Below are positions 12,075-36,337 of a stretch of DNA of 64,000 bases, piece after piece. The notes under the pieces are model-generated. The model saw only the letters and a program-made list of their open reading frames with translations. It was not told where the DNA came from and did not search any database. Every line of letters starts with the position of its first letter. Within the stretch, counting starts at the first letter, position 1. The stretch covers positions 601,442 through 665,441 of the forward strand of contig JACKFU010000001.1 in the NCBI GenBank assembly GCA_020632295.1, read 5' to 3'. This DNA comes from Candidatus Peribacteria bacterium. Lineage in GTDB: Bacteria > Patescibacteriota > Gracilibacteria > Peribacterales > Peribacteraceae. Both the position numbers and the translations under genes were made by a program.

Positions 12075-13052
12075 CTATTTGTACGAATCACTATTTTCGG
12101 CTTCAGCTTGCTCAATTTCTGTGTTCAATGTCTTCGCCGCGAGAGCCAAATCATTACAGAATTTTACATCGGATTGGACTTGACGGAATCCTGTGATAAG
12201 TTCGTTTTGTTCCTCTTCCTGAAGAAGGGTCTTCAAGACAGCCTCCTGCTCTTCTAGACAGGCGATTGCAGCTTCTATTTTCTCTGTAACAAGAGGGGGA
12301 GGAGGGGTGTTTCCAACACGAATATCATCGAGGCGGACCATCAGGTGGATAACCCACGTTCGTGCTCTATCAACGCGTAGGTGGCTCATAGCTAGGCTTC
12401 TTTGGACATTGTAGGTGATGCCAAGGTTGCGCTTGGCTTCTTCCAAACCTTCTTTACTGTCGTAGACGCCAACATCCATTGCTTGGATCACGGTAGAGAT
12501 GGCATCCATCAGGTTTCCGATGTGGAAGAGAGCAGTCTTCTTTGTCGATTCCACGGGGCCTGCCATTGTTTCTACAAACTGTTTCTCTTTGCGGAGCATC
12601 TCTAAATCCATTGTTAGAGTTGCTCGGAAACAGGTAAAGGTGACAGTGGTTACTGTATCGCGGTTTGCCTTGCGAACATCATCACGGCATGCACGTCTTT
12701 TTTCCGTACGCTTTTGTCGCCGAAGTTGCTGTTGTTCTCGAAACGCAGCAGCCTCTTTACGTGTGTTCATCATAGCAGCCCAGAAGCCCTGGTCACGCGA
12801 TCTACGTTCTTGCCACTTGAGTTGTGTGGCTTGTATTTCGAGGAGTTCTCCGGTGCTAAGGGAGAGGGAAGAGGTCTCAGAAGGTACAGAGGAATCAGAG
12901 GAAAGAGAGGAGCTCGAGGAACTTGAAGAGCTCGAAGATGTTTTCTGTAGCCCTATTGCTGCGAAGGTTTTCATCGGAGCGCAGAGGGTTCCAAGAAGAC
13001 AGAATACGATGAGGAGCCGTGAGAAAGAAGTCACGGGAAGGCAGTGTAGCAT
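12075..13052 (-). CDS. Secreted hypothetical protein with poly-Ser tract
   Basis: Signal-like N-terminus, SSSSSSSSSSSLSSDSS run, helical remainder. Starts 6 nt after the upstream stop. Confidence 0.6.
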   Translation of the reverse strand: MLHCLPVTSFSRLLIVFCLLGTLCAPMKTFAAIGLQKTSSSSSSSSSSSLSSDSSVPSETSSLSLSTGELLEIQATQLKWQERRSRDQGFWAAMMNTRKEAAAFREQQQLRRQKRTEKRRACRDDVRKANRDTVTTVTFTCFRATLTMDLEMLRKEKQFVETMAGPVESTKKTALFHIGNLMDAISTVIQAMDVGVYDSKEGLEEAKRNLGITYNVQRSLAMSHLRVDRARTWVIHLMVRLDDIRVGNTPPPPLVTEKIEAAIACLEEQEAVLKTLLQEEEQNELITGFRQVQSDVKFCNDLALAAKTLNTEIEQAEAENSDSYK

Positions 13053-13058: not shown

Positions 13059-13979
13059 CTACGCTTTTGCTACTTTCAGTACATGGCCACTAAGACTTTC
13101 GACAACTGCTTCAAGTTCATCATTGATAATGAGATGATCAAAGAGATCTTTTTGGTCTTCGAAGAATTTTAGGTCCTCCTCTGCATTCTTCAGTCGGTCT
13201 GCAATTTGTTTCTCGGTGTCACGTCCACGTTCACGGAGTCGGTGGAGGAGGGATGAGAGCATTTGACGTTTACTGCTACCTGGAGGAAGGAGCCCAAACG
13301 AGAGGATCGATCGTCGTCCGAGCGTCGACGACAGTCCTTGCAGCAGGCCCATCTCGGTAATGACAATCGGAATCTTTTTCTTCGACCAAATTGCTTCGAT
13401 ATCCTTCTTCCTGTATCCATACCAGCGCTTTTCATCGGACGAGGGGATACTGGTTGATGCTGCTAGTTCATCATTTCTTTTCAGGTTCAAAAACTCTTCA
13501 GTGGTGACATGAATGTATTCATCTTCATCACTGGCTTTAGGAGGACGTGTTGTCAGAATTGGTACGCGCTCAACGTACGAACCAACTTTCGTAGAAAGGA
13601 GAATGGAGACGGTTGTCTTTCCCACGCCCGATGGCCCCGTAAGTGCGAGGAGATAGCCAGGGAATTCCTGCTTTACGTCCTGATGTACCGGTACTTCATA
13701 GGCAATGTCGTAGGATCGCAGGCCATCTGCTGTCACCTGGGAAAGGCGCATGCGGGGGGTGACGTGCATGCCAATGGCTAACGACAATTGACGATTAACA
13801 ATTAACTGACCTGCCACTTTTGTTCCGTCTTCTAGTTCAATGAGACCGATTATTCTTGGTTCACTGGGAAACCCTTCTGGGGGATGATGGACGACGGTCC
13901 ACGAGAGAATGGTACCCTCTTGAAGTTTTTTCTTGAGGTTTGCTTGAGCTCGGTGAATAGATGGAGGAGTACTACGCAT
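13059..13979 (-). CDS. Fusion protein: DUF35-type OB-fold domain plus guanylate-kinase-like P-loop kinase domain
   Basis: N-terminal GTILSWTVVHHPPEGFPSEPRIIGLIELEDGTKVAGQL...IGMHVTPR (DUF35 OB pattern, no Zn ribbon). C-terminal GPSGVGKTT P-loop, TTRPPK..., YGY, LID RLRERGRD. ATG at 13979 overlaps the thiolase stop by 8 nt. Confidence 0.7.
   Translation of the reverse strand: MRSTPPSIHRAQANLKKKLQEGTILSWTVVHHPPEGFPSEPRIIGLIELEDGTKVAGQLIVNRQLSLAIGMHVTPRMRLSQVTADGLRSYDIAYEVPVHQDVKQEFPGYLLALTGPSGVGKTTVSILLSTKVGSYVERVPILTTRPPKASDEDEYIHVTTEEFLNLKRNDELAASTSIPSSDEKRWYGYRKKDIEAIWSKKKIPIVITEMGLLQGLSSTLGRRSILSFGLLPPGSSKRQMLSSLLHRLRERGRDTEKQIADRLKNAEEDLKFFEDQKDLFDHLIINDELEAVVESLSGHVLKVAKA
13788..13808. 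repeat. Degenerate heptamer array TTGACGA/TTAACAA/TTAACTG inside the DUF35 domain CDS
   Basis: Direct reading. Encodes the loop IVNRQLS. Confidence 0.7.
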
Positions 13980-15081
13980 GTTCCAGTATATGAATTCCGC
14001 AAGTGGCAGCAGCACCGCCGAAGTTATGGGTCAGGCCATATGTTTTTTCGCTTGTTTTCAACTGCTTGGCGATGTCAATCATCTGCTTAATGCCGGTTGC
14101 TGCGACCGGGTGTCCGCATGCTTTTAGTCCGCCAGAGGCATTAATTGTGATTTGTGATTCGTGATTTGTATAGAGATTGATCCCTTCACCAGGGAGCGCA
14201 AAGCCCATATCTTCCAGTGAGATGATGGCGGCGATAGAGAAGCAATCATGGAGCTCGATGCAATCAATCTGATCACGCGTAATATCTGCTTCTTGTAGTG
14301 CGGCAACCATCGCATCTTTTGTAGCAGCAAATGATGTCACCGTTTGTCTGTCACAGAGACTCAGTGCATCGGTTGTTAGTTGTGATGCAATGATCTTGAG
14401 AGGGCTCTCGTGCTTTGTTGAGAGAATAACGGCTGCCGCACCGTCACTAATCGGCGAACAATCGAGCATACACAGTGGGTCAGCGACCTTCGGTGATGCA
14501 CTAATTGCCTCCGCGGGGATCTCTTTTCGAAACTGTGCAAAGGGATTTGAGACTGCATTTTTGTGATGCCTCGCACTCACCGCATTGAGCCTCTCTCTCG
14601 TTAGGCCATGCTCAAACATGTAGCGGTTTGTAATGAGTCCGAAGATACCGGGGAAGGTGAGTCCGGATGGACTGTCTTTCTCCGCATCGGCAGCTCCCAT
14701 AAGTGCAGAGGCAATAACGGAGCCGGGTACATCCGTCATTTTTTCTACGCCAACAACGAGGACAGTTTCTGCTTTACCGCTTTCGAGCATTGCACAGGCC
14801 GTGTGCAGTGCAACTGCCCCCGACGCGCATGCTGCTTCTGCGCGAAGTGCTGGCGGCTGGTGAGGCAGCAGACTTGCTGCCATTGCACCGAGGTGTGCTT
14901 GGTCATTTGTTGCTTCGCCAAGCATGTTGGCAACCACGACCATATCAATATCGAGTGCAGTGCATGTTGCGTTTTCTATTGCTGCATCGATCGCTTCTTC
15001 CATTAGGTCACGAATACCTTTGTCCCAGTGCTCACCGAAGCGTGTTTGCCCTGAGCCGGTGAGGTAGATAGAAGTGTTCAA
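13972..15081 (-). CDS. Acetyl-CoA acetyltransferase (archaeal/SCP-x-type thiolase)
   Basis: LTGSGQTRFGEHW, active-site region AACASGA, C-terminal GGLKACGHPVAATG...NFGGAAAT. Apparent TTG start. Confidence 0.85.
   Translation of the reverse strand: MNTSIYLTGSGQTRFGEHWDKGIRDLMEEAIDAAIENATCTALDIDMVVVANMLGEATNDQAHLGAMAASLLPHQPPALRAEAACASGAVALHTACAMLESGKAETVLVVGVEKMTDVPGSVIASALMGAADAEKDSPSGLTFPGIFGLITNRYMFEHGLTRERLNAVSARHHKNAVSNPFAQFRKEIPAEAISASPKVADPLCMLDCSPISDGAAAVILSTKHESPLKIIASQLTTDALSLCDRQTVTSFAATKDAMVAALQEADITRDQIDCIELHDCFSIAAIISLEDMGFALPGEGINLYTNHESQITINASGGLKACGHPVAATGIKQMIDIAKQLKTSEKTYGLTHNFGGAAATCGIHILEHA
14145..14172. repeat. Heptamer array TTGTGAT/TTGTGAT/TCGTGAT/TTGTATA inside the thiolase CDS
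   Basis: Direct reading. Encodes YTNHESQIT. Confidence 0.85.
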
Positions 15082-15104: not shown

Positions 15105-16130
15105 TTAGTGACTATTAGCTGTGAGAGATTGATATTCAGAATAATTCAGGTAGTGTGTTTCTCTGGTGTCGGGTTCTAACTCTATGCCATCGCGGAGCAT
15201 TGTCATGAGGAAGGCATCGCTTCCTGCACCGGACCCGTAGGAAACAAGAAGAATGGTCTCATCTTTTTTGGCTTTCTGCAGTACGTGAGCAAGTCCGAGA
15301 GGACTACAGGCACTGTAGGTGTTTCCGATGTGCGGAACAATGAATCCATGTTCCATCTGCTCTTTTGAGAATCCAAATTCTTTTGCCATGCGGCTGGGGA
15401 ACTTTCCGTTTGGCATGTGGAAGATGACGTGGTCGATATCTTTTACCTCTATCTTTGTCAGTTCAAGTATCCCGGCTGTGGCTTCACGCACATGGCGGAA
15501 GTAGGCAGGTTCCCCGGTAAAGCGTCCGGCGTGGCTCGGGTGCTTCTCTCCGTTGGCTCTCCAGAAGTCTGGGGTGTCTGTTGTAAAACTTAGGGTTTTT
15601 TCTATGCGGCAGAGTGCGTGCTTTTGCTCGGCAGATCCCATGACAAACGCAGCAGCACCAGCAGCAGCGGTGTACTCGAGTGCATCACCGGGCTTGCTCT
15701 GCGCTGTATCGGCACCAATGGCAAGACCAAAACTAATCTGCTTTGCTCGTACCATGCTGTCAACAATCTGCATGGCAGCTGTTCCTGCTTTACAAGCAAA
15801 CTCTAGGTCTGCTGCATGACAGAAGGGGTCACACTCAAGGGCAGCTGCTACCATGCCGCTTGTTGGTTTTACGGCATAGGGGTGACTTTCGGATCCGACA
15901 AAAACAGCGGAGATCTGGGTTGATTCAATGCTTGCCATCTCTATGGCTTGCTTTCCTGCGGCAAAGGCGAGGGTAAAGGTGTCTTCTCCGGCATCAGGAA
16001 CAGTTTTTTCGTTCACACCAAGGCCGGATTTATACTGAGCAGCGTCCTGTTTCCAGGCGGCAGCAATTTCCTCCACGGTGATCTTGTTGGAGGGCACAGA
16101 CAAACCAAATCCAATAATGGCGGAATTCAT
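15105..16130 (-). CDS. Hydroxymethylglutaryl-CoA synthase (archaeal-type, about 340 aa)
   Basis: IIGFGLSVPSNKITVEEIA, VFVGSESHPYAVKP, ACKAGT. Size and order next to the thiolase fit. Confidence 0.85.
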   Translation of the reverse strand: MNSAIIGFGLSVPSNKITVEEIAAAWKQDAAQYKSGLGVNEKTVPDAGEDTFTLAFAAGKQAIEMASIESTQISAVFVGSESHPYAVKPTSGMVAAALECDPFCHAADLEFACKAGTAAMQIVDSMVRAKQISFGLAIGADTAQSKPGDALEYTAAAGAAAFVMGSAEQKHALCRIEKTLSFTTDTPDFWRANGEKHPSHAGRFTGEPAYFRHVREATAGILELTKIEVKDIDHVIFHMPNGKFPSRMAKEFGFSKEQMEHGFIVPHIGNTYSACSPLGLAHVLQKAKKDETILLVSYGSGAGSDAFLMTMLRDGIELEPDTRETHYLNYSEYQSLTANSH

Positions 16131-16165: not shown

Positions 16166-17332
16166 CTATCTAGCCATCTTTTTATGACTACTTGCAAGCT
16201 TCTGTGCAGCCTGTGCTGCAAGCAGACTTATCTCTCCAGCAAGGACTGCAGCTCCGATAGATTCTGCAAGTTGTTGAGCAGGTTTTAGGTTTGAGGTGTT
16301 AGGTTTTAGGAGGAGGGCAAGACATTGGTGTTGTGCGGGAAGTTCCGTTCCACCCCCGCGAACACCACAGAGGAGTGCGGGGAGGCGAGTGGTTATTTGT
16401 AATTCGTGATTCGTTATTTGTTCTACGGTTGTGTCGGCGAGCGAGCCTTCCACGGTGTGTGCAGCATCTTGTCCTGTTGCAAGATACAAAGCGGCGATGA
16501 TATTTGCTGCATGTAAATTCGATCCAATTGCTCCGGCGATCTTCGAGCCACGTTTGAGTTTTGCTTCTGCGACCTCAAGCATGGCTTCGGGCGTAGTCTT
16601 TAGTATCTCTGTGCAGGTTTCAGATGTTAGGTGACAGGTAGCAGTGACTTCATACCCGCGACCCTTGTGGTGCGTGCGCTTACTAGGTTTTTTATCACTA
16701 TCAATATTTCCTGCGATGGTAATCAGACGCGCCGATGGCATGTCTGTACAGATTCTGTTGCCAATCTCCTGAGCGGCAATCGTAATCATATTCATGCCCA
16801 TTGCTTCATCGGTATCTGCGTTCAGCGTGAGGAAGAGGTAGTTATCGTCAGTGTCGATGTCGTAACTAAGGATCTTCAAGTGATTACTTGTTGCTTCTCC
16901 CACGGCTTTCCACTCATCTTCATTCTTCTTGATTGAATTAATTAATTGATCAATGTTTTTCTCTGATTTAAAAGCAATTGTTCGACTGATTCCATGATAG
17001 ATTGATGTGAGTTTTATGCCGTCGCCTTCGGAGACTGCTTTGCAGCCGCGGTTCACACTAGCAACAAGTGCCGCCTCTGTCGTTGCGAGAGGTAGGTGGA
17101 GCGTACTTGTTTCGAGTGAGCTGAATGTTGCCTTGAGAGGGCCTGCGTATCCGACAGGAATCGGGACACTTCCGAACATTTGCTCGCAGTTCTTCTCTTC
17201 CGCCTGCCCAATGCGACTTGGCTCCGTGCCAAGCAGAGAGAGGTTTACATTCAAGGTATCTTGAATTTGCATACGCCTGTGTGCGCAGCGTTCGTGAGAG
17301 GAAAGGTTTTCTGGAAGGTTACGAAGATCCAT
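16166..17332 (-). CDS. HMG-CoA reductase, class I-like
   Basis: LPLATTEAALVASVNRGCKA, DEAMGMNM, RGGGTELPAQHQCL motifs. Confidence 0.85.
   Translation of the reverse strand: MDLRNLPENLSSHERCAHRRMQIQDTLNVNLSLLGTEPSRIGQAEEKNCEQMFGSVPIPVGYAGPLKATFSSLETSTLHLPLATTEAALVASVNRGCKAVSEGDGIKLTSIYHGISRTIAFKSEKNIDQLINSIKKNEDEWKAVGEATSNHLKILSYDIDTDDNYLFLTLNADTDEAMGMNMITIAAQEIGNRICTDMPSARLITIAGNIDSDKKPSKRTHHKGRGYEVTATCHLTSETCTEILKTTPEAMLEVAEAKLKRGSKIAGAIGSNLHAANIIAALYLATGQDAAHTVEGSLADTTVEQITNHELQITTRLPALLCGVRGGGTELPAQHQCLALLLKPNTSNLKPAQQLAESIGAAVLAGEISLLAAQAAQKLASSHKKMAR
16281..16308. repeat. Heptamer array GGTTTTA/GGTTTGA/GGTGTTA/GGTTTTA inside the HMGR CDS
   Basis: Direct reading. Encodes LKPNTSNLKP. Confidence 0.8.
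16393..16420. repeat. Heptamer array TTATTTG/TAATTCG/TGATTCG/TTATTTG inside the HMGR CDS
   Basis: Direct reading. Encodes QITNHELQIT. Related to the array at 14145-14172. Confidence 0.8.
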
Positions 17333-18285
17333 TAGACTAAGTGTGCACCTTTTCCCACACTAGCTTCAAACACTTTACATCCTTTCTGCACATTTGCGTA
17401 TGCCCTTACTGTTTCCAGTGCCTCTGCTTCACAAATCACATGGACTGTTGGTCCGGCATCCATGGTATAGAGCAGGGGAAGATGCTGTGTTTTTCTTAGT
17501 GTCTTTAGTTCGTCGACGATGCGATACGTTTCATCACTTAAGTAGTGCAGCGGAGGATCTTGCGTTTGCATGCAATGATGCATATCCAAACAGTCTTCTT
17601 CGGTGACTGCCATCAATTTTTCAAAATCTTTATTGGCAATAGCATCAATGCATTCTTGCTGACGTCGCTCCGTGATGTCTGTAATACGTTTTTTATAGTG
17701 TGGGCTTGTCCATGCAGAGGCGTGTCCTTCTGTTGAGCCTACCTTCTTATGATCCGTATTTGGTGCAATAACAATATCAAACAACTCCCAGTGATCTTGT
17801 GGGGCAATTTGTCTTGCAATAGCCGAGTCTTCGGTATTTTCTAGTGCAACAAACCCTCCAACAATCGAGCGAGCTGCACTACCAGAACCCAGTCGTGCCA
17901 TTTGCGAAATTTGCTCATCGTTTAGTCCGCAATCTGCGAGTGCTGCAATGGCTTTTGCAAGTGCACTGAAGACTGCTGCAGAGGAAGCGAGTCCAATTCC
18001 CGGTGGAATCTGTGAGTCGATTTCTATCGAAATCGTATTTTGTACCTTTGGATGGTATTGCTTGATGAGATCAACGGTTTTTTGAAAACGTTCGATGTCT
18101 TTATCTTTCATCTCTTTATTATTTGATGAGACGGAAAATCGGTCGGATTCCGTTACCGTAATCTCAACGCAGGGTTCGCTGAGTGTCATGCTTAGTGAAT
18201 CTGCAGCGGGGAGACGAAGCTCATTGTTTCTGTTGCCCCAGTATTTAATAAGGGCGATGTTTGGCGTGGAGCAGGCGGTGATCAT
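17332..18285 (-). CDS. Diphosphomevalonate decarboxylase family (could instead be phosphomevalonate decarboxylase)
   Basis: PNIALIKYWGNRNNELRLPAADSLSMTL, GLASSAA GHMP motif. 1-nt TAATG overlap with the HMGR start. Confidence 0.85.
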   Translation of the reverse strand: MITACSTPNIALIKYWGNRNNELRLPAADSLSMTLSEPCVEITVTESDRFSVSSNNKEMKDKDIERFQKTVDLIKQYHPKVQNTISIEIDSQIPPGIGLASSAAVFSALAKAIAALADCGLNDEQISQMARLGSGSAARSIVGGFVALENTEDSAIARQIAPQDHWELFDIVIAPNTDHKKVGSTEGHASAWTSPHYKKRITDITERRQQECIDAIANKDFEKLMAVTEEDCLDMHHCMQTQDPPLHYLSDETYRIVDELKTLRKTQHLPLLYTMDAGPTVHVICEAEALETVRAYANVQKGCKVFEASVGKGAHLV

Positions 18286-19154
18286 GAGATAGAGAGTGTT
18301 AGAGTGTTAGAGTTTTGGGGAGTGAGGGTACTTAGTATCATGCCACATCCGCCAGTGCGTGCCCCTGCACCAATGACTTTTGCTGCGCCGCCTTCTTGTT
18401 CAATTTTTTTGATCAATTCTTTTGCCTCTTCTGTCACAATACCGAGAGAACACTGTGCTTGATGATGGTCACGGATTACTGTTGCAAGGTCTTCGCCACT
18501 CAGCAGTCGATCGGCGCATGATCCTATCGTCTTAAGGGCGTCTTGTAGCTCTTCTTTTCTCTCTGTTATCCACGCGATAAGTTCCGGTGTTTGTTCATGG
18601 GGTGTTCCGGTATCAATCAGGCACGCATCCTTCAGCAGATTTTCAGGCAGATGAATTGGTTCTGGTTCAGACCCTTTCGTAAACTTCATAGGTTGCTTGT
18701 TCCATATCACGGCAAAGTCCAGTCCGCTATGACCTGGGTTAAGTCTATCTTCAATGTGGAGGGCAGGTTCTTTGTAGTGATGATCAAGGAGTACCCCAGT
18801 AATTGCAATATTGAGTGCTGTTGAGCTTCCCATACCTTTACCAAGTGGCAAATGGTTTTCGATAGCGAGTGTGCCACCAGCTACTGACCGTGCTTCTCTA
18901 CAGTGTTTTATAATCTTTTGTGCGTATGTAATCCAGAGAGGATGCGCATCCCATTCAAGTGTAATTTCGTCTGTTGATGTATTTTCTGTGAACCGCGCAA
19001 TAAGCTCTTGGGAGGAGGGAATGGCAATACCCGTGTATCCAAATAACACGGCATATTCGCCGGAGAGGATAATCTTCCCACAGACGTGTGCAGTTCTATC
19101 CGCCAAATCGCCTTGTACGGGAAGAAAATGCATCGACAGATTCCTGCAGCTCAT
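18282..19154 (-). CDS. Mevalonate kinase (GHMP kinase)
   Basis: GKIILSGEYAVLFG and PLGKGMGSSTAL motifs. Alternative start at 19133. ATGA overlap with the downstream decarboxylase. Confidence 0.85.
   Translation of the reverse strand: MSCRNLSMHFLPVQGDLADRTAHVCGKIILSGEYAVLFGYTGIAIPSSQELIARFTENTSTDEITLEWDAHPLWITYAQKIIKHCREARSVAGGTLAIENHLPLGKGMGSSTALNIAITGVLLDHHYKEPALHIEDRLNPGHSGLDFAVIWNKQPMKFTKGSEPEPIHLPENLLKDACLIDTGTPHEQTPELIAWITERKEELQDALKTIGSCADRLLSGEDLATVIRDHHQAQCSLGIVTEEAKELIKKIEQEGGAAKVIGAGARTGGCGMILSTLTPQNSNTLTLSIS
18291..18316. repeat. CTAACACT-family octamer array (read on minus strand) forming the mvk C-terminus, just upstream of the decarboxylase ATG
   Basis: Plus strand agagagtgttagagtgttagagtttt. 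Encodes NSNTLTLSIS. Confidence 0.85.
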
Positions 19155-19764
19155 TTACGCCAAAGTCTGGGAAGAGCATGTCGATAAAATCCCACTCCGC
19201 ATACGCTGCCTGGAAGAGGAAGAAGTTGCTTGTTCGATGTTCACCGGAGGTGCGAATAATCAGATCGATATCGGGAAGCTCAGGGTGGTCGAGATACGGC
19301 GAGATGAAATCTTCAGACTCAGCTTTTAGATGATAGCTTTTAGCTTTTAGAGCAGCCCTTAAGATTTCATCTTTGCCACCGTAGTCCACAGCGAGGTGTA
19401 GAGTAAATCCGTCATAGTCTTTTGTTTCTTCTTCTACTTCCTCAATCAGTTTTGCCAGTGAAGTGGGGATGCGGTCACGCCTTCCAGAATGAATAAATTT
19501 TGTGTTCTTATTGTTAAATCCTTCCCGTTCTTTGGCCAAATACTCCTCAAGCATCTTCATGAGCATTGAGACCTCTTTCTTATCGCGTTTCCAGTTTTCC
19601 GTGGAGAAGCACCAGACGGTGAGTGCATCTACTCTCGGGTCGTTTCTGCACCAGTCGGTTAAGCTCCGAAAATGTTCAATAGCTTCCTTGTGCCCATCCC
19701 ATGGATGGAGACTTCGTTTCTTCGCCCAGCGTCGATTGCCGTCAGGGATGATGGCTACATGCAT
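19096..19764 (-). CDS. uppS: Isoprenyl transferase (undecaprenyl-diphosphate synthase family)
   Basis: HVAIIPDGNRRWAKK and IRTSGEHRTSNFFLFQAAYAEW motifs. Confidence 0.9.
   Translation of the reverse strand: MHVAIIPDGNRRWAKKRSLHPWDGHKEAIEHFRSLTDWCRNDPRVDALTVWCFSTENWKRDKKEVSMLMKMLEEYLAKEREGFNNKNTKFIHSGRRDRIPTSLAKLIEEVEEETKDYDGFTLHLAVDYGGKDEILRAALKAKSYHLKAESEDFISPYLDHPELPDIDLIIRTSGEHRTSNFFLFQAAYAEWDFIDMLFPDFGVNELQESVDAFSSRTRRFGG
19321..19348. repeat. AGCTTTT heptamer array inside the uppS CDS
   Basis: agcttttagatgatagcttttagctttt, encoding KAKSYHLKAES. Confidence 0.8.
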
Positions 19765-20267
19765 AGTGCTAGAGCTTGGTGGAACCAGGGGGCATATTGA
19801 TTTGGATGTTTAGTCATATCTAATTTGAGCGTATCAATTGCAATCCATTTCAGCTCAGCTACTTCGCTTGGGGCGGGGCAAAGTTCTACAGATTCATCGG
19901 CTTCGCCGATCAATATCGTATCGTATTCATACTCTGTACCAGCTCCACTTGGGTCATCTGCTTTATATACGAATGTGTCAACAACAGAAAGAGGGCAGGT
20001 AAATCCACATTCTTCCTGGAGTCTTGCTGCCGCCTCTTCTTCGATTGGTTTTTTCTCTTGCGGGTGACTGCAGCAGGTATTTGCCCAGTAGCCCCCAAAG
20101 AGCTTCTTCTCTGGTGCACGTTTTTGGATGAGGAGCTTTGTTCTATCTGTCGAGAAGATAAAGATAGAGAAGGCTTTGTGGAGTTTGCCCCCATGTGTAT
20201 GTGCGTCCATGATGTCGCAGGTTCCGAGGGTTGTCCCTTTTGGGTCGGTGAGAATGACGGATTTCAT
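19755..20267 (-). CDS. idi: Isopentenyl-diphosphate delta-isomerase, type 1 (Nudix)
   Basis: HKAFSIFIF, WANTCCSHP, EEAAARLQEECG motifs. Confidence 0.85.
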   Translation of the reverse strand: MKSVILTDPKGTTLGTCDIMDAHTHGGKLHKAFSIFIFSTDRTKLLIQKRAPEKKLFGGYWANTCCSHPQEKKPIEEEAAARLQEECGFTCPLSVVDTFVYKADDPSGAGTEYEYDTILIGEADESVELCPAPSEVAELKWIAIDTLKLDMTKHPNQYAPWFHQALALCM

Positions 20268-20309
20268 ACAGAGAGTGTAACAGGGAAATTTGGGAATGAT
20301 AGAAAATTA

Positions 20310-20318
20310 TGCTATAAT
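20310..20318 (+). promoter_or_regulatory. Extended -10 box TGcTATAAT, 7 nt upstream of ATG 20326
   Basis: Direct reading. Implies a leaderless mscS-family transcript. Confidence 0.5.
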
Positions 20319-20325
20319 AGACCTA

Positions 20326-21375
20326 ATGGAGCAAATACAGACCATTCTAAATTTAACCATAGGAGGGAATACTGTCGGCGAATGGGCTGTTGCCGCTTCG
20401 GTCTTTCTTGGCATCTTTATCGCGCTGCAAATGGTGCGAAAGTTTATTATCAGCAGACTGCATACCCTTGCAAAAAAGTCGACTATCAAAATTGATGATG
20501 TGATTGCAGGGTTCTTCAACAGCATGAAGACGCCAATCTTCTTTCTTATTGCATTGTTTGTTGCTGTACGAGGCGTAGAAGTGCCTCAATCTATTCAGTT
20601 AATCTTGAATATTGCTCTTGTTGTTGTCATTGTCGCGCAAGCGGTGCGACTACTTGAAGAGGTGACAGTCATGCTTGTCGAGAAACAGTTTCACAAGAAG
20701 AATTCCCAAGCACCGCTGCCAGGGATTTTTCGTATTGCTATTCGTATTCTCCTTTGGTCTGTCGGCTTTCTCCTTATTCTCAGTAACATCGGTGTCGATA
20801 TTACGTCACTCGTTGCGGGTCTAGGTATTGGAGGTCTTGCCGTCTCACTTGCGCTTCAGAGCATTCTGACGGATATGTTTTCTAGCTTCTCGATCGCGGT
20901 GGATCGCCCATTTGAGGTAGGAGACTTTATTATAGTTGGAGAGCACAAGGGAACAGTAAAACACATTGGTCTCAAGACAACACGTATCGAAGCACTTGAA
21001 GGTGAGGAAATTGTTATCTCCAATACAGAGCTAACGACTGCACGAGTGAGAAACTACAAGAAAATGCATAAACGTCGTATTCAATTTAGTATTGGTGTCA
21101 CGTATGACACGACACCGGAGAAATTGCGTTTGGTGAATGATATTGTAAAGCAGTCCATAGAAGGCATGGAGCATGTTGAATTTGATCGTTCGCACTTTAA
21201 AACATTTGGTGATAGTGCGCTGCTCTTTGAAGTGGTGTACTTCATGCTTATCAGTGACTACGCTGTCTACATGAATGCTCAGCAGGAAATGAATTTAAAG
21301 ATTCATGAAGCATTTACAAAAGAGGGTATAGAAATGGCGTTTCCTACACAGACCATAGTTGTGAAGAAGCAATGA
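20326..21375 (+). CDS. MscS-family mechanosensitive channel
   Basis: FEVGDFIIVGEHKGTVKHIGLKTTRIEALEGEEIVISN beta-domain motif after TM helices. Track start 20290 is TTG and lies inside the promoter. Confidence 0.85.
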   Translation: MEQIQTILNLTIGGNTVGEWAVAASVFLGIFIALQMVRKFIISRLHTLAKKSTIKIDDVIAGFFNSMKTPIFFLIALFVAVRGVEVPQSIQLILNIALVVVIVAQAVRLLEEVTVMLVEKQFHKKNSQAPLPGIFRIAIRILLWSVGFLLILSNIGVDITSLVAGLGIGGLAVSLALQSILTDMFSSFSIAVDRPFEVGDFIIVGEHKGTVKHIGLKTTRIEALEGEEIVISNTELTTARVRNYKKMHKRRIQFSIGVTYDTTPEKLRLVNDIVKQSIEGMEHVEFDRSHFKTFGDSALLFEVVYFMLISDYAVYMNAQQEMNLKIHEAFTKEGIEMAFPTQTIVVKKQ

Positions 21376-21393
21376 GCGCGCTACCATGAGTGC

Positions 21394-21882
21394 ATGCGCA
21401 GAGGATTTACTCTCATCGAACTCATTGTTGTTATCGCTATTATTACCATAATAGCGGCAACAGTTTTCGTTGCGGTTGACCCTGCAAAGCAGCTTCATAA
21501 AGCGCGAAACTCTTCGCGCTGGTCTGATGCCACGTCACTCCTAGAAGGCATAAAGAAGTACCAGTTTGATAACGATGGAATTCTTCCGCCAATTGATAAT
21601 GATGAGCGTACAGTGCAGCTTATTGGCTCAAGTGTTTCTGGCTGCGGTGGTACGTGTGCAGGCTACACCGTAGCAGGTAGCAGTTGTGGGGTGGACCTTG
21701 CTACTGCGTTACGTCCGTATATGAAAGATCTACCGTTCGATCCGCGTAGTGGTTCCCTGACAAATACCCGGTATTACATCAATAAAGATGAGTTTAGCCT
21801 GGTATCTATTGGAGCATGTGATCCAGAAGGGGAGGGCGCAGGAGGCCAGGGAGAGGTTCCAGAGATTGAATTAACACGCTAA
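21394..21882 (+). CDS. Type IV pilin (prepilin-type N-terminal cleavage/methylation domain)
   Basis: MRRG|FTLIELIVVIAIITIIA class III signal. Confidence 0.85.
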   Translation: MRRGFTLIELIVVIAIITIIAATVFVAVDPAKQLHKARNSSRWSDATSLLEGIKKYQFDNDGILPPIDNDERTVQLIGSSVSGCGGTCAGYTVAGSSCGVDLATALRPYMKDLPFDPRSGSLTNTRYYINKDEFSLVSIGACDPEGEGAGGQGEVPEIELTR

Positions 21883-21901
21883 TTAGCCAATAAAGCTACT
21901 A

Positions 21902-21930
21902 TTTACGGCAATCGTGTTTTTTGATATACT
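21902..21930 (+). promoter_or_regulatory. Promoter: TTTACG, 17 nt, TGaTATACT, 6 nt before the pilB ATG
   Basis: Direct reading of tttacggcaatcgtgttttttgatatact atcaag ATG. Confidence 0.5.
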
Positions 21931-21936
21931 ATCAAG

Positions 21937-23631
21937 ATGACTTCAAAAACACCAACACCAACCCTCGATAACGATCTTCTGAGCCTTCTTGTCGAGAGTG
22001 GCGTCATGACCGAAGAAGGTCTGCGCACACTCACAAGTCGTAGTAAGGGTGAGCAGAGTATTTTTGAGCGGCTTCTTCTGAATGAGGGGTACCTCATTGA
22101 TAATCAGTTAGGTCAACTTAAAGCACAGGTGCATGGCTGGCATTTCGTCGATTTGGAAACAATGGACATTGCTGAGCAGGAACTGAGCGCTCTACCGACA
22201 GTAATGCGCGAAGCGCAGGGAGTTGTTCCGTATCGTTATAACAGTGAGCTGCGTATTGCGATGAAGAATCCCGCTGATACGAAGCTTGTGCGCCTTCTTC
22301 GTAAGAAGTTTGGTGCATCGGTATCTATCGCTTATGCAACGGATGCTGATATTTCTGAGGCACTTGCTTCCAATAATGCAGAGTACGCAGAGCATTGTGA
22401 ACTCGTTCTCAAGCGACACTTGGAGGCCAGCAAGCAGCAGAAGACTGATGATAATTCTATCATCGAACTGGTAGATTCATTGCTACTTCATGGTGTTCGT
22501 TCCCGCGCTTCTGATATTCACATAGAGCCACGTCGTGAGGAATCTATTGTGCGTGAGCGTGTTGATGGGGTGCTTGGTACTACGCTTCGATTTGCTCCAT
22601 CTGTACACGATCTCGTTTGTCTTCGCATTAAGGTTCTTGCAAACCTTGCAACAGATGAGCATAGCAAGCCGCAAGATGGCAAACTGCAATACATTACTCC
22701 TGGCGGCAAGCGTGTGGATGTCCGTGTATCTATTTCGCCGATTACGAGTGGCGAAAAAATTGTGATGCGACTTCTTGCCCCAGAAGACCAAGCGCTTTCT
22801 ATGGAGGCAATTGGGTTGCAGCCTGAGGATCTTCATCGTCTTCAGAAGGAGATGGGTCGGTCATGGGGTATGGTTCTTGTCACTGGGCCAACAGGTTCTG
22901 GCAAAACAACTACACTCTATTCTGGCGTACGAAAGTTGAATCAAGACTCAGTGAACATTGCGACTATCGAAGATCCTGTAGAATATGATTTGCCTGGTGT
23001 AAACCAAATTCAGGTAAATGAGAAGGCAGGTATTACGTTTGCCAATGGTCTTCGATCTATTGTCCGTCAGGACCCAAACATTATTCTGGTCGGAGAAATT
23101 CGCGATAGCGAAACAGCGGGCATCGGTGTGAATGCAGCAATGACTGGTCACCTTGTGCTTTCTACACTGCACACAAACGATGCTGCAACGGCACTCCCTC
23201 GTCTTATTGATATGGGCATTGAGCCGTTCCTAATTTCGTCTACGGTCAATGTTATCATCGCACAGCGACTTGTACGCAATACGTGCTCTCGTTGTCGGGA
23301 GAGTAGGGAAGTGTCTGTATCGGAACTGAAAGAGTCTGTTCCTGCAGACCTTCTGAAGAAGTTGGCAAATGGGAAGAAGAAGATTCGTCTCTACGAGGGA
23401 AAGGGATGCAGTGTCTGTGATGGATCTGGCTACCATGGCCGAAGCGGTATTTTTGAACTGCTGATAGTCGATAAGTCTATTCAGGATCTTATTATGAAAA
23501 ATGCAGATGCCGATACGATTAAGCAGGCTGCTGTAAAAAACGGTATGAGAACGATGATAGAAGATGGTATCAGTAAGGTGCTACAAGGAGTAACAACGCT
23601 TGAAGAAGTACTCCGTGTTATTCGCTCATGA
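21937..23631 (+). CDS. pilB: Type IV pilus assembly ATPase (GspE/PilB family)
   Basis: VTGPTGSGKTTTLY Walker A, GEIRD, Cys tetrad CSRC...CSVC, N-terminal GSPII-like domain. Confidence 0.92.
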   Translation: MTSKTPTPTLDNDLLSLLVESGVMTEEGLRTLTSRSKGEQSIFERLLLNEGYLIDNQLGQLKAQVHGWHFVDLETMDIAEQELSALPTVMREAQGVVPYRYNSELRIAMKNPADTKLVRLLRKKFGASVSIAYATDADISEALASNNAEYAEHCELVLKRHLEASKQQKTDDNSIIELVDSLLLHGVRSRASDIHIEPRREESIVRERVDGVLGTTLRFAPSVHDLVCLRIKVLANLATDEHSKPQDGKLQYITPGGKRVDVRVSISPITSGEKIVMRLLAPEDQALSMEAIGLQPEDLHRLQKEMGRSWGMVLVTGPTGSGKTTTLYSGVRKLNQDSVNIATIEDPVEYDLPGVNQIQVNEKAGITFANGLRSIVRQDPNIILVGEIRDSETAGIGVNAAMTGHLVLSTLHTNDAATALPRLIDMGIEPFLISSTVNVIIAQRLVRNTCSRCRESREVSVSELKESVPADLLKKLANGKKKIRLYEGKGCSVCDGSGYHGRSGIFELLIVDKSIQDLIMKNADADTIKQAAVKNGMRTMIEDGISKVLQGVTTLEEVLRVIRS

Positions 23632-24683
23632 AACTGTTTTCCCGGCCAAAGCTCGGCGCAACAGATACGCAGCTCGTTCTTCGGAACTTGTCAGTATCAC
23701 TCAGCGCTGGCGTTCCACTTGCTCGTGCACTTCGGACCTTTGAAAGCGATTCTCCACGATCGAGAAAGCCCTTACTCACGCATCTACGACGTAGTATCGA
23801 ACAGGGGAAGTCTCTTGCTGATGCCATGGAATCTGCACCAAAGCGATTCCCAGCGATTGCTATTAACTTGGTGCGCACGGGTGAAACAAGCGGATCTCTT
23901 CCGAAAAGCCTCGATGCCGTTGCTGCGCACCTAAAGAAGATGATGGAGCTCAAGCGCAAGATTCGCAGTGCGATGATGTACCCAACATTTGTGCTCATTG
24001 CCGTCCTTGGTCTTGGGATCTCTATTGGCACTCTTGTTCTTCCCAAGCTCATTCCTCTCTTTGAAACACTTGATGTAGAACTGCCGTGGACAACGCGAGC
24101 GTTGCTTGCCACTGCGCATTTTCTCGACACCTATGGCTTACTGTTTGCTGGAAGCATCATTCTCTTGCTTATTGGTGTATTTCTGCTGACAAGAACAGAA
24201 TGGTTCAAGCCACACTGGCAACGATTTCTGCTTCATATTCCCTATATTGGAACTGTGCAGAAGCAGGCATCGGTTGCACAGATCGCTGCAAGCCTTGGCA
24301 CGCTCCTCGATAGTGGTATTCCTATTCATAGCGCCATTCCTTCTGCAGCTATGTCGACAGAGAACCGTGTCTTTCGTCAGGCACTGCTTGATACAATTCC
24401 TGTCATTGAATCTGGTCGCCCGTTTGCCGAAGGGCTGAAGCAGGCAGGCAGTACATTCCCACTGATGAGTAGAGCACTCGTGGAAGTAGGCGAGGAGACG
24501 GGGACGCTCACAGAAACACTGCAGTATCTTTCGGAGTATTTTGATGCAGAGGTGGATTACGCCGTGAAGAATTTAACGAATGCACTTGAGCCGATTCTTC
24601 TTATCTTTGTTGGTCTTCTTGTTGGTGGTGTGGTCATGGCGATCATCACACCGATCTACGATGTGACGAGTTCAATACGGTAA
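23628..24683 (+). CDS. pilC: Type IV pilus platform protein (GspF/PilC family)
   Basis: Two T2SSF-like repeats. EVGEETGTL motif. 3 TM. Confidence 0.88.
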   Translation: MKLFSRPKLGATDTQLVLRNLSVSLSAGVPLARALRTFESDSPRSRKPLLTHLRRSIEQGKSLADAMESAPKRFPAIAINLVRTGETSGSLPKSLDAVAAHLKKMMELKRKIRSAMMYPTFVLIAVLGLGISIGTLVLPKLIPLFETLDVELPWTTRALLATAHFLDTYGLLFAGSIILLLIGVFLLTRTEWFKPHWQRFLLHIPYIGTVQKQASVAQIAASLGTLLDSGIPIHSAIPSAAMSTENRVFRQALLDTIPVIESGRPFAEGLKQAGSTFPLMSRALVEVGEETGTLTETLQYLSEYFDAEVDYAVKNLTNALEPILLIFVGLLVGGVVMAIITPIYDVTSSIR

Positions 24684-24694
24684 CATTTTTCGCT

Positions 24695-25159
24695 ATGATG
24701 GAACGCAAGATGCGTTCCCGCCCTGCCTTCACCGCTATTGAACTGATTGTTGTTTTGGCAATTTTTGTTGTTGCCATAGCGATTACGTTGCCCTTTTTAG
24801 GGAAGTTTCAGCAGGAAGAAACACTGACGACGGTCACGCAAGATATCGTGCAAACGCTTCGAAGGGCGCAGAACAAATCGATGAATGGGGAGCGTGGAGT
24901 GGCGTGGGGTGTGGCTCTCCAAGAAGGGGCGTATATTCAGTTTGCTGGACCTTCTTATTCTTCTGGTCGCATTGTACGTCTCGATGAGAAGCACACACTC
25001 CAAAAAACATTTACGTTGTATGGGCCGCCAGAGATTCTCTTTGCGAAGCGTACAGGCTATGTCGGCACTGAGGCAGTGATTACTCTCCAGGGACCTGAGC
25101 GGGGCCTCTCGAACATTACCGTTAATGCTGAAGGTGGTATTTCCTATGAATCACTATGA
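24695..25159 (+). CDS. Pseudopilin / minor pilin
   Basis: RPAFTAIELIVVLAIFVVA prepilin-like N-terminus. Confidence 0.75.
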   Translation: MMERKMRSRPAFTAIELIVVLAIFVVAIAITLPFLGKFQQEETLTTVTQDIVQTLRRAQNKSMNGERGVAWGVALQEGAYIQFAGPSYSSGRIVRLDEKHTLQKTFTLYGPPEILFAKRTGYVGTEAVITLQGPERGLSNITVNAEGGISYESL

Positions 25160-29484: not shown

Positions 29485-29951
29485 GAACCCTTACTTCAAG
29501 ATACGGCTTTACCCTCTTAGAGCTGATTGTGTACGTGGGCATTACAGCACTCGTGGTTGTCTCGCTGACAAATGTCATGATTACAGTGTTTGAGACACGG
29601 GAGCGGACAGAGGGCGTCAGTGAAGTGCAGCAGACTGGTCGGTTTCTCTTCGATCGTATTCGTGCATCTGCTCTTGCTGCCGCCACATTTGAAGGAACGA
29701 CATCAGATCGTCTTGTTCTTAACATGCCAGAAGGCGTTTTGGGCCCCATTGTTTTTTCAGTGAGTGAGGGTGTTGTCTATACAAGAACTGGGGAGAAGCC
29801 AGCGGAAGCACTTACGTCATCACTGGTGACAGTCGACGCACTCATTTTTACTGTTGTTCATGATACTGTCTTACAAATTGATCTGACTATTTCTGATGCA
29901 AAAGAGGATTCGATGACGTTGCATACATCCCATTCTCTCCGCTTACTATGA
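29481..29951 (+). CDS. Pseudopilin / minor pilin
   Basis: SRYG|FTLLELIVYVGITALVV. Confidence 0.8.
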   Translation: MRTLTSRYGFTLLELIVYVGITALVVVSLTNVMITVFETRERTEGVSEVQQTGRFLFDRIRASALAAATFEGTTSDRLVLNMPEGVLGPIVFSVSEGVVYTRTGEKPAEALTSSLVTVDALIFTVVHDTVLQIDLTISDAKEDSMTLHTSHSLRLL

Positions 29952-30337
29952 TGAAAACGTCCAATAGACCCGGCGCAATGCTCCTCATTACCGTCATGAT
30001 TATGGGTGCAGTTGCACTACTCATTGGTATGAGTTTGGCACTTCGGGGTATTGGGGAAATGGAGATGAGTTTTAGTTCGTCTCAGGCACTCAAAACGCAG
30101 GCCGTGCTCGATGGATGTATGGAGGAAGTGCTTATGCAAGTATGGGGTGATAGTTCCTATCGAGGAGGAACAATTTCCCTTGGAGAAGGGGAGTGCGTTG
30201 TGACGATTATCCCCGAAGATGACATCAAGATCGTTTCCATTCATGCGCATATCGGTAAGTGGGAACAGACGCTACAGGCGCGCGTTGATTCTGAATCAAT
30301 TGGCATGCAACTTCTTGAGTGGCGACAGGGGCAGTAA
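29948..30337 (+). CDS. PilX-like minor pilin (no Glu+5)
   Basis: NRPGAMLLITVMIMGAVALLIG hydrophobic N-terminus. Position in the pilin block. Confidence 0.55.
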   Translation: MMKTSNRPGAMLLITVMIMGAVALLIGMSLALRGIGEMEMSFSSSQALKTQAVLDGCMEEVLMQVWGDSSYRGGTISLGEGECVVTIIPEDDIKIVSIHAHIGKWEQTLQARVDSESIGMQLLEWRQGQ

Positions 30338-30362
30338 ATACTGTATACTCGATGCACCTTCC

Positions 30363-31355: not shown

Positions 31356-31372
31356 TGCTAGGATCTCTTTCC

Positions 31373-32245
31373 ATGGAGAATAGAAACACCTTAGGCGAGC
31401 AGTTTGCCACTATGTTCAAAGGTGGTGTCATTATGGACGTGGTTACCCCAGAGCAAGCTCGTATAGCAGAGCAAGCTGGTGCGTGTGCTGTAATGGCTCT
31501 GGAACGCGTCCCGTCAGATATTCGAAAAGAGGGTGGTGTTGCGCGCATGAGTGACCCAAAGCTTATTAAAGAGATTAAAGCTGCAGTGTCTATTCCTGTC
31601 ATGGCTAAGGTGCGCATTGGTCATACCGCAGAGGCACGTATTCTTCAGGCACTGGAAGTCGACTATATCGACGAAAGTGAGGTGCTGACTCCTGCAGATC
31701 CATTTAGTCATATTGATAAGTCACAGTTCACGATTCCGTTTGTCTGTGGAGCAACGAACCTTGGCGAAGCACTCAGGCGTATTCAGGAAGGTGCTGCGAT
31801 GATTCGTACCAAAGGAGAGGCCGGAACAGGGAATGTCATTGAGGCTGTCCGTCATCTTAAGGAGATTACGCAGCAGATTGTGGATCTTACGACGGTGTCT
31901 CTCTCAGAGAGATCCCTCTTTGCAGAGCGTGAACGTGTAGCACTAGATCTTGTCGATCGCATTGTAGAGCTGAAGCGACTCCCAGTCGTCACCTTTGTTG
32001 CCGGAGGTATAGCAACTCCTGCAGATGCAGCATTGGTGATGGAACTTGGCGCAGAAGGTGTGTTTGTTGGTTCGGGTATCTTCAAGTCCGAGAATCCCGC
32101 TCAGCGTGCAGAAGCTATCGTGAAAGCAACGACGTACTGGCAAGACTCTGCAGTTCTTGCGGAGGTTTCTGAGGGGTTGGGGGAAGCAATGAGTGGAATT
32201 GAGATCGATCAACTTGAAGAGACACTTGCCGAAAGAGGATGGTAA
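31373..32245 (+). CDS. pdxS: Pyridoxal 5'-phosphate synthase lyase subunit
   Basis: [38 protein letters not shown]... near-canonical PdxS. Confidence 0.95.
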
Positions 32246-36291: not shown

Positions 36292-36298
36292 GCAATAC

Positions 36299-36330: not shown

Positions 36331-36337
36331 AAACTAC

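Follow-up and report, generated by a model that had tools for sequence, protein, structure and literature searches.

A 64,000-nucleotide (nt) stretch of the genome of a Candidatus Peribacteria bacterium (contig JACKFU010000001.1, positions 601,442 to 665,441; here called the window, in whose own coordinates all positions are given) carries a mevalonate operon that encodes a mevalonate kinase (MVK) and a decarboxylase but no second kinase, which raises the question of how isopentenyl diphosphate (IPP) is completed in this organism. The Peribacteria pathway was described as “near-complete” in 2016 (PMC4736985), and no paper found in the searchable literature identifies the missing Peribacteria kinase. 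The last gene of the operon encodes an OB-fold domain of the DUF35 type fused to a kinase domain with the fold of guanylate kinase (Gmk). From sequence and gene context it is proposed, with about an even chance of being right, that this domain is an isopentenyl phosphate (IP) kinase non-homologous to the known isopentenyl phosphate kinase (IPK), most likely converting IP to IPP while tethered to the scaffold of the acetoacetyl-CoA thiolase and HMG-CoA synthase (HMGS). The fusion gene and its parts are the following:

13059..13979, minus strand: fusion gene, OB(DUF35)-linker-Gmk-fold kinase (open reading frame (ORF) and translation; PF01796 and PF00625; more than 170 full-length homologues with the same architecture)
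13920..13979, minus strand: N-terminal 20 amino acids (aa), with a predicted helix at aa 5-18, in place of the usual DUF35 Zn ribbon (AlphaFold2 (AF2) secondary structure; no Cys)
13695..13919, minus strand: DUF35-type OB-fold domain, aa 21-95 (PF01796; phmmer; five predicted beta strands)
13656..13694, minus strand: flexible linker, aa 96-108 (sole segment with a predicted local distance difference test score (pLDDT) <50, aa 99-103)
13062..13655, minus strand: Gmk-fold P-loop kinase domain of a distinct subfamily, aa 109-306 (PF00625; Foldseek; subfamily hidden Markov model (HMM))

The gene runs from an ATG at 13979 to a stop codon at 13059-13061 and encodes 306 aa, with no cysteine over the whole length of the translation. 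Its ATG is embedded in the stop codon of the thiolase gene (cATGcgTAG), an overlap of 8 nt at 13972-13979. The product contains GTILSWTVVHHPPEGF, IGMHVTPR, GPSGVGKTT (aa 115-123) and TTRPPKASDEDEYIHV (aa 143-158), followed by YGY (aa 187-189) and RLRERGRD (aa 247-254). In a Pfam scan, aa 21-77 matched the DUF35 OB family OB_ChsH2_C (PF01796; E 9.4e-13, 48.3 bits against a cut-off of 27.1) and aa 111-297 matched Guanylate_kin (PF00625; E 1.8e-12, 47.8 bits against 25.2); the same scan gave no match to the DUF35 Zn ribbon PF12172, and the rubredoxin-like four-Cys ribbon is absent. Searched with phmmer against PDB sequences, the OB part matched 6esq_E, the DUF35 subunit of the Methanothermococcus thiolase/HMG-CoA synthase complex (E 7.7e-5), and also the ChsH2 DUF35 protein 6ok1_B, and the kinase part matched guanylate kinases at E ~1e-10. 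R10, in the N-terminal segment, is invariant across 87 sequences. An AF2 model built on an 87-homologue alignment (mean pLDDT 85.6) shows a helix, a five-stranded OB domain, a linker disordered at aa 99-103 and a Gmk fold, and the 50 best Foldseek matches of this model in the PDB are all guanylate kinases (TMt 0.87-0.89, identity 23-25%). These results bear out the initial annotation, made from the letters of the window, in its DUF35 OB-fold without Zn-ribbon cysteines, in the P-loop NMP-kinase fold of the remaining ~200 aa with all the motifs quoted for it, and in the 8-nt overlap with the thiolase gene. That annotation had also called the domain degenerate and its Gmk signature eroded; the motif is indeed two residues shorter and without its Gly, but the word misleads, as only the guanine pocket is changed and the catalytic apparatus is invariant.

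By its sequence, the kinase domain is a distinct subfamily, paralogous to the housekeeping Gmk. Kinase-domain HMM scores are bimodal, with the subfamily at >=160 bits and canonical Gmk at no more than about 100 bits, and a HMMER search over 1.84 billion representative proteins gave 20 matches at E <=1e-30, with canonical Gmk following at 50-65 bits. Two proteins of intermediate score (P0146 and P0150, ~100 bits), one on a 1-kb contig and the other 7 kb from a gene resembling diphosphomevalonate decarboxylase (MDD), were left out of the subfamily. The fusion falls below the Gmk equivalog TIGR03263 (76.2 bits against a cut-off of 160.45), and PhnN (TIGR02322) gives a weak match over the P-loop half (29.7 bits against 156). 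In the Pfam scan there was no match to the animal-type phosphomevalonate kinase (PMK) family PF04275 at E <=0.01, and no GHMP domain in the fusion protein. The active site was compared in an alignment of 87 fused and eight stand-alone subfamily sequences with 42 canonical Gmk sequences, human GUK1 numbering being used for Gmk positions. Its elements in the window are:

13614..13637, minus strand: P-loop GPSGVGKT, aa 115-122 (invariant in 87/87 fused and 8/8 stand-alone sequences)
13515..13553, minus strand: acceptor-phosphate motif TTRPPKASDEDEY, with R145, K148 and Y155 (R41=R145 and Y53=Y155 invariant; R44 replaced by K148)
13407..13451, minus strand: remodelled NMP-binding insert SIPSSDEKRWYGYRK, with P179, S180, E183, R185, Y187 and Y189 (a cluster of subfamily-specific invariant residues)
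13194..13241, minus strand: lid segment RLRERGRDTEKQIADR, with R247, R249, R251 and R262 (match to Gmk R133, R137 and R148; invariant in fused and stand-alone sequences)

Kept without exception are the P-loop, T-T-R, R145, Y155, Y187-G (Y81=Y187) and the lid arginines R247, R251 and R262 (GUK1 R133, R137 and R148). The changes fall on S37, E72 and T83, which we take to be the guanine-base contacts of Gmk seen in the yeast and mouse Gmk-GMP structures. S37 is replaced by I141 in 87/87 fusions (I, L or M in the subfamily) against S/T in 39/42 canonical Gmk sequences; E72 by A174 (A, T or S in the subfamily) against E in 39/42; and T83 by Y189 in 95/95 subfamily sequences against T/S in 32/42. 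A subfamily-specific P140-I141 directly precedes TTRPPKASDEDEY, at the place where Gmk has its guanine-binding Ser, and TTRPPKASDEDEY itself departs from the Gmk signature T-[ST]-R-x2-[KR]-x2-[DE]-x2-G-x2-Y in being two residues shorter and lacking the Gly; where human GUK1 has G50, 86 of 87 family members show a gap in the alignment. Further subfamily-specific invariants, which cluster in the NMP-binding subdomain, are P140, D151, E154, P179, S180, E183, R185, W198, E209, L212, L213 and R222, and the kinase domain is better conserved than the OB domain (mean top-residue frequency 0.71 against 0.60). Since the catalytic and acceptor-phosphate residues are kept while the guanine-contact positions are replaced, this pattern fits an active phosphotransferase that would still hold a phosphate monoester, one other than GMP.

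The fusion is a conserved trait typical of Peregrinibacteria (class Peribacteria) and not a chance event, since it is kept in more than 170 sequence clusters at the same operon position. Among 5.8 billion proteins searched there were 487 homologues. The top 120 (identity down to 55%) are nearly all two-domain proteins by Pfam or length, and those among them with a named source come almost all from Candidatus Peregrinibacteria or Peribacteraceae. The catalytic motifs are intact in 172 of 181 fused members. A scan of genome contigs with the fusion protein alone gave seven close loci. Among the fetched fused loci, the fusion lies directly after the HMGS and thiolase genes in 18 of 19 (L001-L007, L018, L019 and L022-L029), that is, in those with upstream sequence, as L004 begins at a contig end. 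The full order IDI-UPPS-MVK-decarboxylase-HMGR-HMGS-thiolase-fusion (IDI, IPP isomerase; UPPS, cis-prenyltransferase; HMGR, HMG-CoA reductase) is present in every fetched locus long enough to hold it (L002, L003, L005, L022, L023, L025, L026 and L028), and partially in L006, whose contig begins at MVK. Neither a third GHMP kinase nor a gene for an amino-acid kinase is present in any fetched fused locus. The homologues are currently labelled “guanylate kinase” (JGI) or “OB-fold domain-containing protein” in databases.

In the window the same order is found on the minus strand, with the fusion as the last gene, preceded by:

13972..15081, minus strand: archaeal-type acetoacetyl-CoA thiolase (NF004720 371.6 bits; NF053570 AcCoTHIOL_METTL 331.8 bits)
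15105..16130, minus strand: archaeal-type HMG-CoA synthase (NF003274 428 bits, TIGR00748 385 bits, both over cut-off)
16166..17332, minus strand: class I HMG-CoA reductase (PF00368 E 7e-91)
17332..18285, minus strand: MDD-family decarboxylase with substrate residues of the phosphomevalonate decarboxylase (PMD) type (closest PDB match 6n0x; motifs YWGN, ELRLP, GSTEGH)
18282..19154, minus strand: mevalonate-kinase-like GHMP kinase (TIGR00549 E 2.4e-21, 76.5 bits, under the cut-off of 163)
19096..19764, minus strand: cis-prenyltransferase (UPPS) (PF01255 E 2e-66; TIGR00055 206.9 bits)
19755..20267, minus strand: type 1 IPP isomerase (IDI) (NF002995 136.2 bits, TIGR02150 106.5 bits, both over cut-off)

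Taken from its first ATG, the MVK-like ORF shares 59 nt with the end of UPPS (19096..19154), and a downstream Met (MHFLP...) may be the true start. Which step the operon lacks depends on its decarboxylase, whose closest PDB match is 6n0x (193.7 bits, where classical MDDs reach 141.7 at most), the Anaerolinea thermophila PMD bound to mevalonate-5-phosphate (PMC9254496). Both proteins have YWGN (N16) where classical MDDs have YWGK, an Arg (R22, ELRLP) at the Staphylococcus epidermidis Ile27 position where classical MDDs have (Y/L)IIP, and G-S-T-x-G-H where classical MDDs have S-R-x-G-M. According to the deposited sequences, the engineered variant 6n0z differs from 6n0x by exactly N to K and H to M, that is, by classical-MDD residues. 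Lys21, Ile27 and Ser192 are among the positions that separate MDD from MPD (Dellas 2013, Table 4; PMC3857490), and at S. epidermidis Lys21, Ile27 and Ser192/Arg193 the operon decarboxylase has Asn, Arg and Ser-Thr, the same as 6n0x. PMD-type residues are present in all nine Peribacteria operon decarboxylases that were retrieved, and because of this the missing step is, as judged from these residues, most likely the conversion of IP to IPP rather than that of a phosphomevalonate kinase: a decarboxylase that acts on mevalonate-5-phosphate yields IP, and the missing enzyme would therefore be an IPK and not a PMK.

A complete and collinear relative allows the remainder of a genome to be considered. 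The window is collinear with Ca. Peribacter riflensis, for which a gene table with KEGG Orthology (KO) assignments is available (supplement of PMC4736985), over roughly 30 genes (TatD, ruvB, rplK, rplA, dusB, clpC, rpsA, HIT and the operon). Gene 643 of that genome is a 312-aa fusion located after the thiolase at the operon end and annotated only through the gmk KO, with a score of 103.7, and gene 213 is a separate canonical gmk of 200 aa with a KO score of 157.7. The gene table contains neither the PMK KOs K00938 and K13273 nor the IPK KO K06981, and no farnesyl or geranyl diphosphate synthase KO. The authors called the mevalonate pathway “near-complete”, with the conversion of mevalonate-5-phosphate to mevalonate-5-diphosphate as the sole link not found, since genes for making mevalonate-5-phosphate and for the onward conversion of mevalonate-5-diphosphate were present (PMC4736985). 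A further candidate for a canonical Peribacteria gmk, in L058 (from the same sample as L028), was rejected, as its mreBCD neighbourhood looks cyanobacterial. Within the 64 kb of the window there is no second Gmk, third GHMP protein or amino-acid-kinase homologue, in agreement with the initial annotation, which had noted a mevalonate kinase and a decarboxylase but no second kinase and had put the fused domain forward as a candidate for the missing PMK or IPK step. Its candidacy as a kinase is supported and may be narrowed to IPK, with PMK less favoured, because the decarboxylase is of the PMD type. The “dull alternative” offered there, a housekeeping Gmk fused by chance, is rejected in view of more than 170 conserved fusions, the fixed operon place and the separate gmk of Ca. 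P. riflensis. As to what would have spoken against the proposal as it was then made, the Ca. P. riflensis table and the alignment give no canonical PMK or IPK elsewhere with this domain as the sole Gmk and its GMP contacts kept, and the DUF35 matches by Pfam and phmmer are significant.

Additional evidence comes from members of the subfamily that are not fused. These stand-alone kinases are ~200 aa long, and gene context was examined for eight of them; the upstream gene is in no case a thiolase. UPPS lies at most 700 bp from the stand-alone kinase in six of nine distinct contexts, among them an IDI-UPPS-kinase arrangement (L011) and a divergent UPPS/kinase pair (L068). No mevalonate-pathway gene was found around the stand-alone kinases, up to 20 kb away, and as a control, UPPS or any mevalonate gene was found in 0 of 38 canonical-Gmk loci. 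A rough neighbour-joining tree places the subfamily as one monophyletic group on a long branch, with stand-alone members on its basal branches. The position of the stand-alone members beside UPPS or IDI and on basal branches suggests that the kinase was already a partner of IDI and UPPS in IPP supply prior to its fusion with the scaffold; such a setting is more in keeping with a reaction that supplies IPP than with a phosphomevalonate kinase. Several stand-alone kinases are paired with genes of the histidine phosphatase family (His_Phos_1; L008, L012, L013, L014/L015 and L070/L071), the His_Phos_1 gene often overlapping the kinase start, sometimes by ~13 nt; the cluster at these loci also holds UPPS, WecG/TagA-like, UDP-GlcNAc 2-epimerase and Wzy_C genes. 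The His_Phos_1 partner might be a phosphotransferase in a prenol salvage route, or a pyrophosphatase. Three stand-alone kinases (P0126, P0270 and P0326) are labelled “Candidatus Kentrum sp.” (Gammaproteobacteria) in UniRef/nr and may come from mis-binned contigs, because they are similar to Peregrinibacteria sequences and have a neighbouring pilin/T2SS-F pair.

The present data allow a model to be proposed for the fusion protein, in which the N-terminal DUF35 OB-fold, its Zn ribbon lost, would dock on the thiolase/HMGS pair encoded upstream, by analogy with archaea, where a DUF35 protein scaffolds the thiolase/HMG-CoA synthase complex. The C-terminal Gmk-fold kinase would be held on a flexible tether, with its ATP site, lid arginines and acceptor-phosphate residues kept and its guanine-recognition residues exchanged for hydrophobic or aromatic ones, and would use ATP to phosphorylate a monophosphate of the isoprenoid pathway at its phosphate group, most likely IP, which would become isopentenyl diphosphate. 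The pathway would then be completed as MVK, PMD and IP kinase, with neither an IPK of the amino-acid-kinase fold nor a GHMP PMK, and the subfamily would have served IPP supply first and been fused to the scaffold later. By fold and ancestry the protein belongs to the Gmk superfamily and the DUF35 OB family, its kinase being a predicted non-homologous replacement within a known pathway. In the searchable full-text literature, no description of an OB-Gmk fusion or of a Gmk-fold IPK or PMK was found. A wider form of the proposal is possible and falls somewhat short of probable: the Gmk-fold IPK would be a third independently evolved type of isoprenoid-monophosphate kinase, tethered so that the first and last enzymes of the PMD route share one assembly, and its His_Phos_1-paired stand-alone relatives next to UPPS or IDI would mark an unrecognised IPP-making or salvage route in bacteria of the candidate phyla radiation (CPR).

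Each part of this model has a counterpart among known systems. With Gmk (EC 2.7.4.8; PF00625, TIGR03263) the fusion kinase shares the fold, the P-loop, TTR, the two acceptor-phosphate Tyr, the lid arginines R133/R137/R148, the C-terminal D/N motif and presumably the chemistry, a transfer of the gamma-phosphate of ATP to a phosphate monoester. It differs from Gmk in its identity of only 23-35%, the two-residue deletion, the absent signature Gly, the replacement of Ser/Glu/Thr by Ile/Ala/Tyr, a four-residue insert with an invariant P-S-x2-E-x-R, and the OB fusion or UPPS neighbour. The OB-fold is homologous to that of the archaeal DUF35 scaffold, and the fusion gene directly follows archaeal-type HMGS and thiolase genes; however, a short helix takes the place of the rubredoxin-like Zn ribbon, a 200-aa kinase is added at the C-terminus, and its complex with the two enzymes is putative. 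Animal PMK, an NMP-kinase-fold enzyme (PF04275), and the ribose-1,5-bisphosphokinase PhnN (TIGR02322) are precedents for NMP-kinase or Gmk-like folds that phosphorylate a non-nucleotide phosphate monoester to a diphosphate, although the fusion kinase has no PF04275 match, lies under the PhnN cut-off and belongs to another subfamily and another gene context. The GK domains of MAGUK proteins are likewise a Gmk fold taken up by a scaffold protein, with a Pro at the hinge Ser or next to it, and a minority clade of the fusions is also without catalytic residues; unlike them, the window protein and ~95% of its relatives have an intact P-loop and lid, and the setting is bacterial and a metabolic operon. 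The DUF35 protein of the archaeal thiolase/HMGCS complex goes back to work from 2018, as cited in PMC12960953. IPK (amino-acid-kinase fold, K06981; archaea and Chloroflexi) resembles the fusion kinase in the proposed reaction and in its place after MVK and PMD and before IDI. CPR IPK genes are reported to be syntenic with IDI (PMC6107057), much as the stand-alone subfamily kinases adjoin IDI or UPPS. However, the likeness to IPK is one of proposed function only, as the fusion has a P-loop NMP-kinase fold and not an amino-acid-kinase fold; the fusion has neither the AA_kinase fold nor the residues listed as invariant in IPK (Dellas 2013, Table 2), and no AA-kinase homologue was found in the window or the fetched loci.

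Other functions for the kinase domain have to be weighed against that of an IP kinase. It is possible to envisage a non-homologous PMK that converts mevalonate-5-phosphate to mevalonate-5-diphosphate, with the decarboxylase being of the classical diphosphomevalonate type. This is exactly the gap named by the authors of the Ca. P. riflensis study (PMC4736985), the phosphate-to-diphosphate chemistry suits an NMP-kinase fold, the decarboxylase scores over the MDD cut-off of TIGR01240, and the invariant R185 and R222 could bind a carboxylate. However, all nine operon decarboxylases have Asn for the beta-phosphate-binding Lys, Arg at the Ile27 position and GST-x-GH, as in the A. thermophila PMD; the stand-alone kinases next to IDI or UPPS have no mevalonate genes in the up to 20 kb around them, so that a PMK would lack its substrate there; and the fusion has no PF04275 match, which together make a PMK unlikely. 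A longer prenyl monophosphate, such as farnesyl or geranyl phosphate, might instead be the substrate, in a salvage route that supplies UPPS with its allylic primer. Of the genes beside stand-alone kinases UPPS is the most constant, a gene with a Lycopene_cyc domain lies beside one stand-alone kinase, and the remodelled acceptor pocket is hydrophobic; in addition, no trans-prenyl diphosphate synthase is found in the window or in most relatives' operons, and the Ca. P. riflensis table lacks an FPP/GPP synthase KO. With such a substrate the fused operons would still have no enzyme for the IP to IPP step, C5 chemistry is indicated both by the PMD-type decarboxylase and by the order IDI-UPPS-kinase in L011, and one operon (L022) has its own trans-prenyltransferase; the idea is regarded as improbable. 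The L022 gene (1455..2297 of that locus, minus strand) encodes a 280-aa trans-prenyl diphosphate synthase with DDxxD motifs and lies on the opposite strand between UPPS and MVK; it has no homologue in the window or in the other Peribacteria loci.

Two further readings place the kinase domain outside isoprenoid catalysis. The domain might serve the thiolase/HMGS complex chiefly in structure or regulation, in the manner of the catalytically dead GK domains of MAGUK proteins. It might then take the place of the Zn ribbon that was lost, or be a sensor for a nucleotide or an isoprenoid phosphate, and the missing kinase would be encoded elsewhere, for example by gene 544 of Ca. P. riflensis, whose genome does hold this amino-acid-kinase-like ORF. 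Gmk becomes a protein binder when its hinge Ser is mutated to Pro, and the invariant P140 lies at this Ser or next to it; the top PDB sequence match is the S37P mutant 9jae, with 4f4j also matched, and a clade with degraded motifs is still retained after HMGS-thiolase, with GRRSILSFGLLPPGKSKR conserved there. However, the P-loop, TTR, the Tyr and three lid arginines are invariant in 87/87 close homologues and intact in 172/181 fused members, and this invariance indicates selection for catalysis; MAGUK GK domains have no P-loop, whereas that of the window protein is intact, as is its lid; intact stand-alone members occur with no thiolase or HMGS nearby; and the IPK KO K06981 is the best KO for no Ca. 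P. riflensis gene. A purely structural or regulatory role is thus quite unlikely. Nor is it probable that the domain is a second NMP kinase (for GMP, dGMP or another nucleotide) fused by happenstance and serving the nucleotide pool, with no part in isoprenoid synthesis. Guanylate kinases are the nearest families by sequence and structure, JGI labels the homologues “guanylate kinase”, and guaA lies 3-5 kb downstream in some stand-alone loci, but all three conserved guanine-contact positions hold other residues (I, A and Y), the score is far under the Gmk equivalog cut-off, the complete genome of the relative has a canonical gmk besides the fusion, and the association with isoprenoid genes is strict against 0/38 canonical Gmk loci; this reading appears highly improbable.

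An IP kinase remains the preferred function, and as a whole this reading is plausible; however, several observations weigh against it, beginning with the substrate, which is deduced solely from pathway logic and gene context. The PMD assignment of the decarboxylase draws on a few signature residues and on similarity to one characterised enzyme; the MDD model TIGR01240 passes on this protein (222.9 bits against a cut-off of 171), and the NCBIfam haloarchaeal PMD model gives just 133.7 bits against a cut-off of 475. In the kinase itself, the invariant R185 and R222 and the nearly invariant R223 could bind the carboxylate of mevalonate-5-phosphate, and PMK activity therefore stays compatible with its sequence. 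Gene 544 of Ca. P. riflensis (437 aa) has a just-sub-threshold match to the argB (amino-acid-kinase) KO, and its product could be a divergent IPK of the amino-acid-kinase fold and hence a competitor for the missing step; it sits in a genome said to be without most amino-acid biosynthesis. There is also no evident reason to tether the last enzyme of the pathway to the first two. Finally, one long-branched clade of fusions (P0123-P0125, P0129 and P0130) is without the P-loop Lys, TTR or the lid arginines, its P-loops reading GVGTST, GVGRNS and GVGRTT and its TTR replaced by TTA, TTS or TTQ. These catalytically degraded fusions keep the GRRSILSFGLLPPG motif and their place after HMGS-thiolase (L018 and L019), and the GRRSILSFGLLPPGKSKR motif is conserved even among them; other mevalonate genes are not adjacent. 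The contigs of P0129 and P0130 carry only HMGS-thiolase-fusion and give no view of a possible compensating kinase. Because the degraded fusions are still retained behind HMGS-thiolase, the kinase domain also has a non-catalytic role in this clade.

Around the operon, the window holds several features of separate interest. Directly downstream of the fusion lies an ORF of 325 aa (12075..13052, minus strand) with a signal-peptide-like N-terminus and a poly-Ser tract, for which no Pfam or NCBIfam match was found; it is a conserved neighbour, with a homologue as the next gene after the fusion in L002, L023, L025 and L026 and at a distance of a few kb in L003, L027 and L028. On the other side, ~23 kb between the operon and the HIT/S1 genes (20290..43600) break the collinearity with Ca. 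P. riflensis genes 612-643, that genome having just five other genes in their place. This stretch holds MscS, a pilin/T2SS-type IV pilus cluster (21394..31355), PdxS/PdxT (31355..32790), an SDF transporter, MscL and a PNPOx-like gene. Two predicted proteins are very large: one of 1442 aa with four Big_5 Ig-like domains and RTX repeats, encoded inside the pilus cluster (25156..29484, plus strand), and one of 1142 aa with a Dictyostelium-type Cys-rich repeat (32863..36291, plus strand); both recall the large extracellular proteins described for Peribacteria. A 464-aa RelA/SpoT homologue (HD_4, RelA_SpoT and TGS) is encoded at 61551..62945 (plus strand), in what is a small-genome bacterium.

The proposal is directly testable with one recombinant protein and commercial substrates. 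If it is true, several hundred database entries now labelled “guanylate kinase” or “OB-fold domain-containing protein” would need correction, and a small, soluble and unrelated IP kinase would become available for engineered isopentenol-utilisation pathways. For the biology of these bacteria, it would add a new non-orthologous gene displacement in a central pathway and a further variant of the mevalonate route, running from MVK through PMD to a P-loop IP kinase, with a bearing on those reconstructions of early isoprenoid biosynthesis that draw on CPR gene content.

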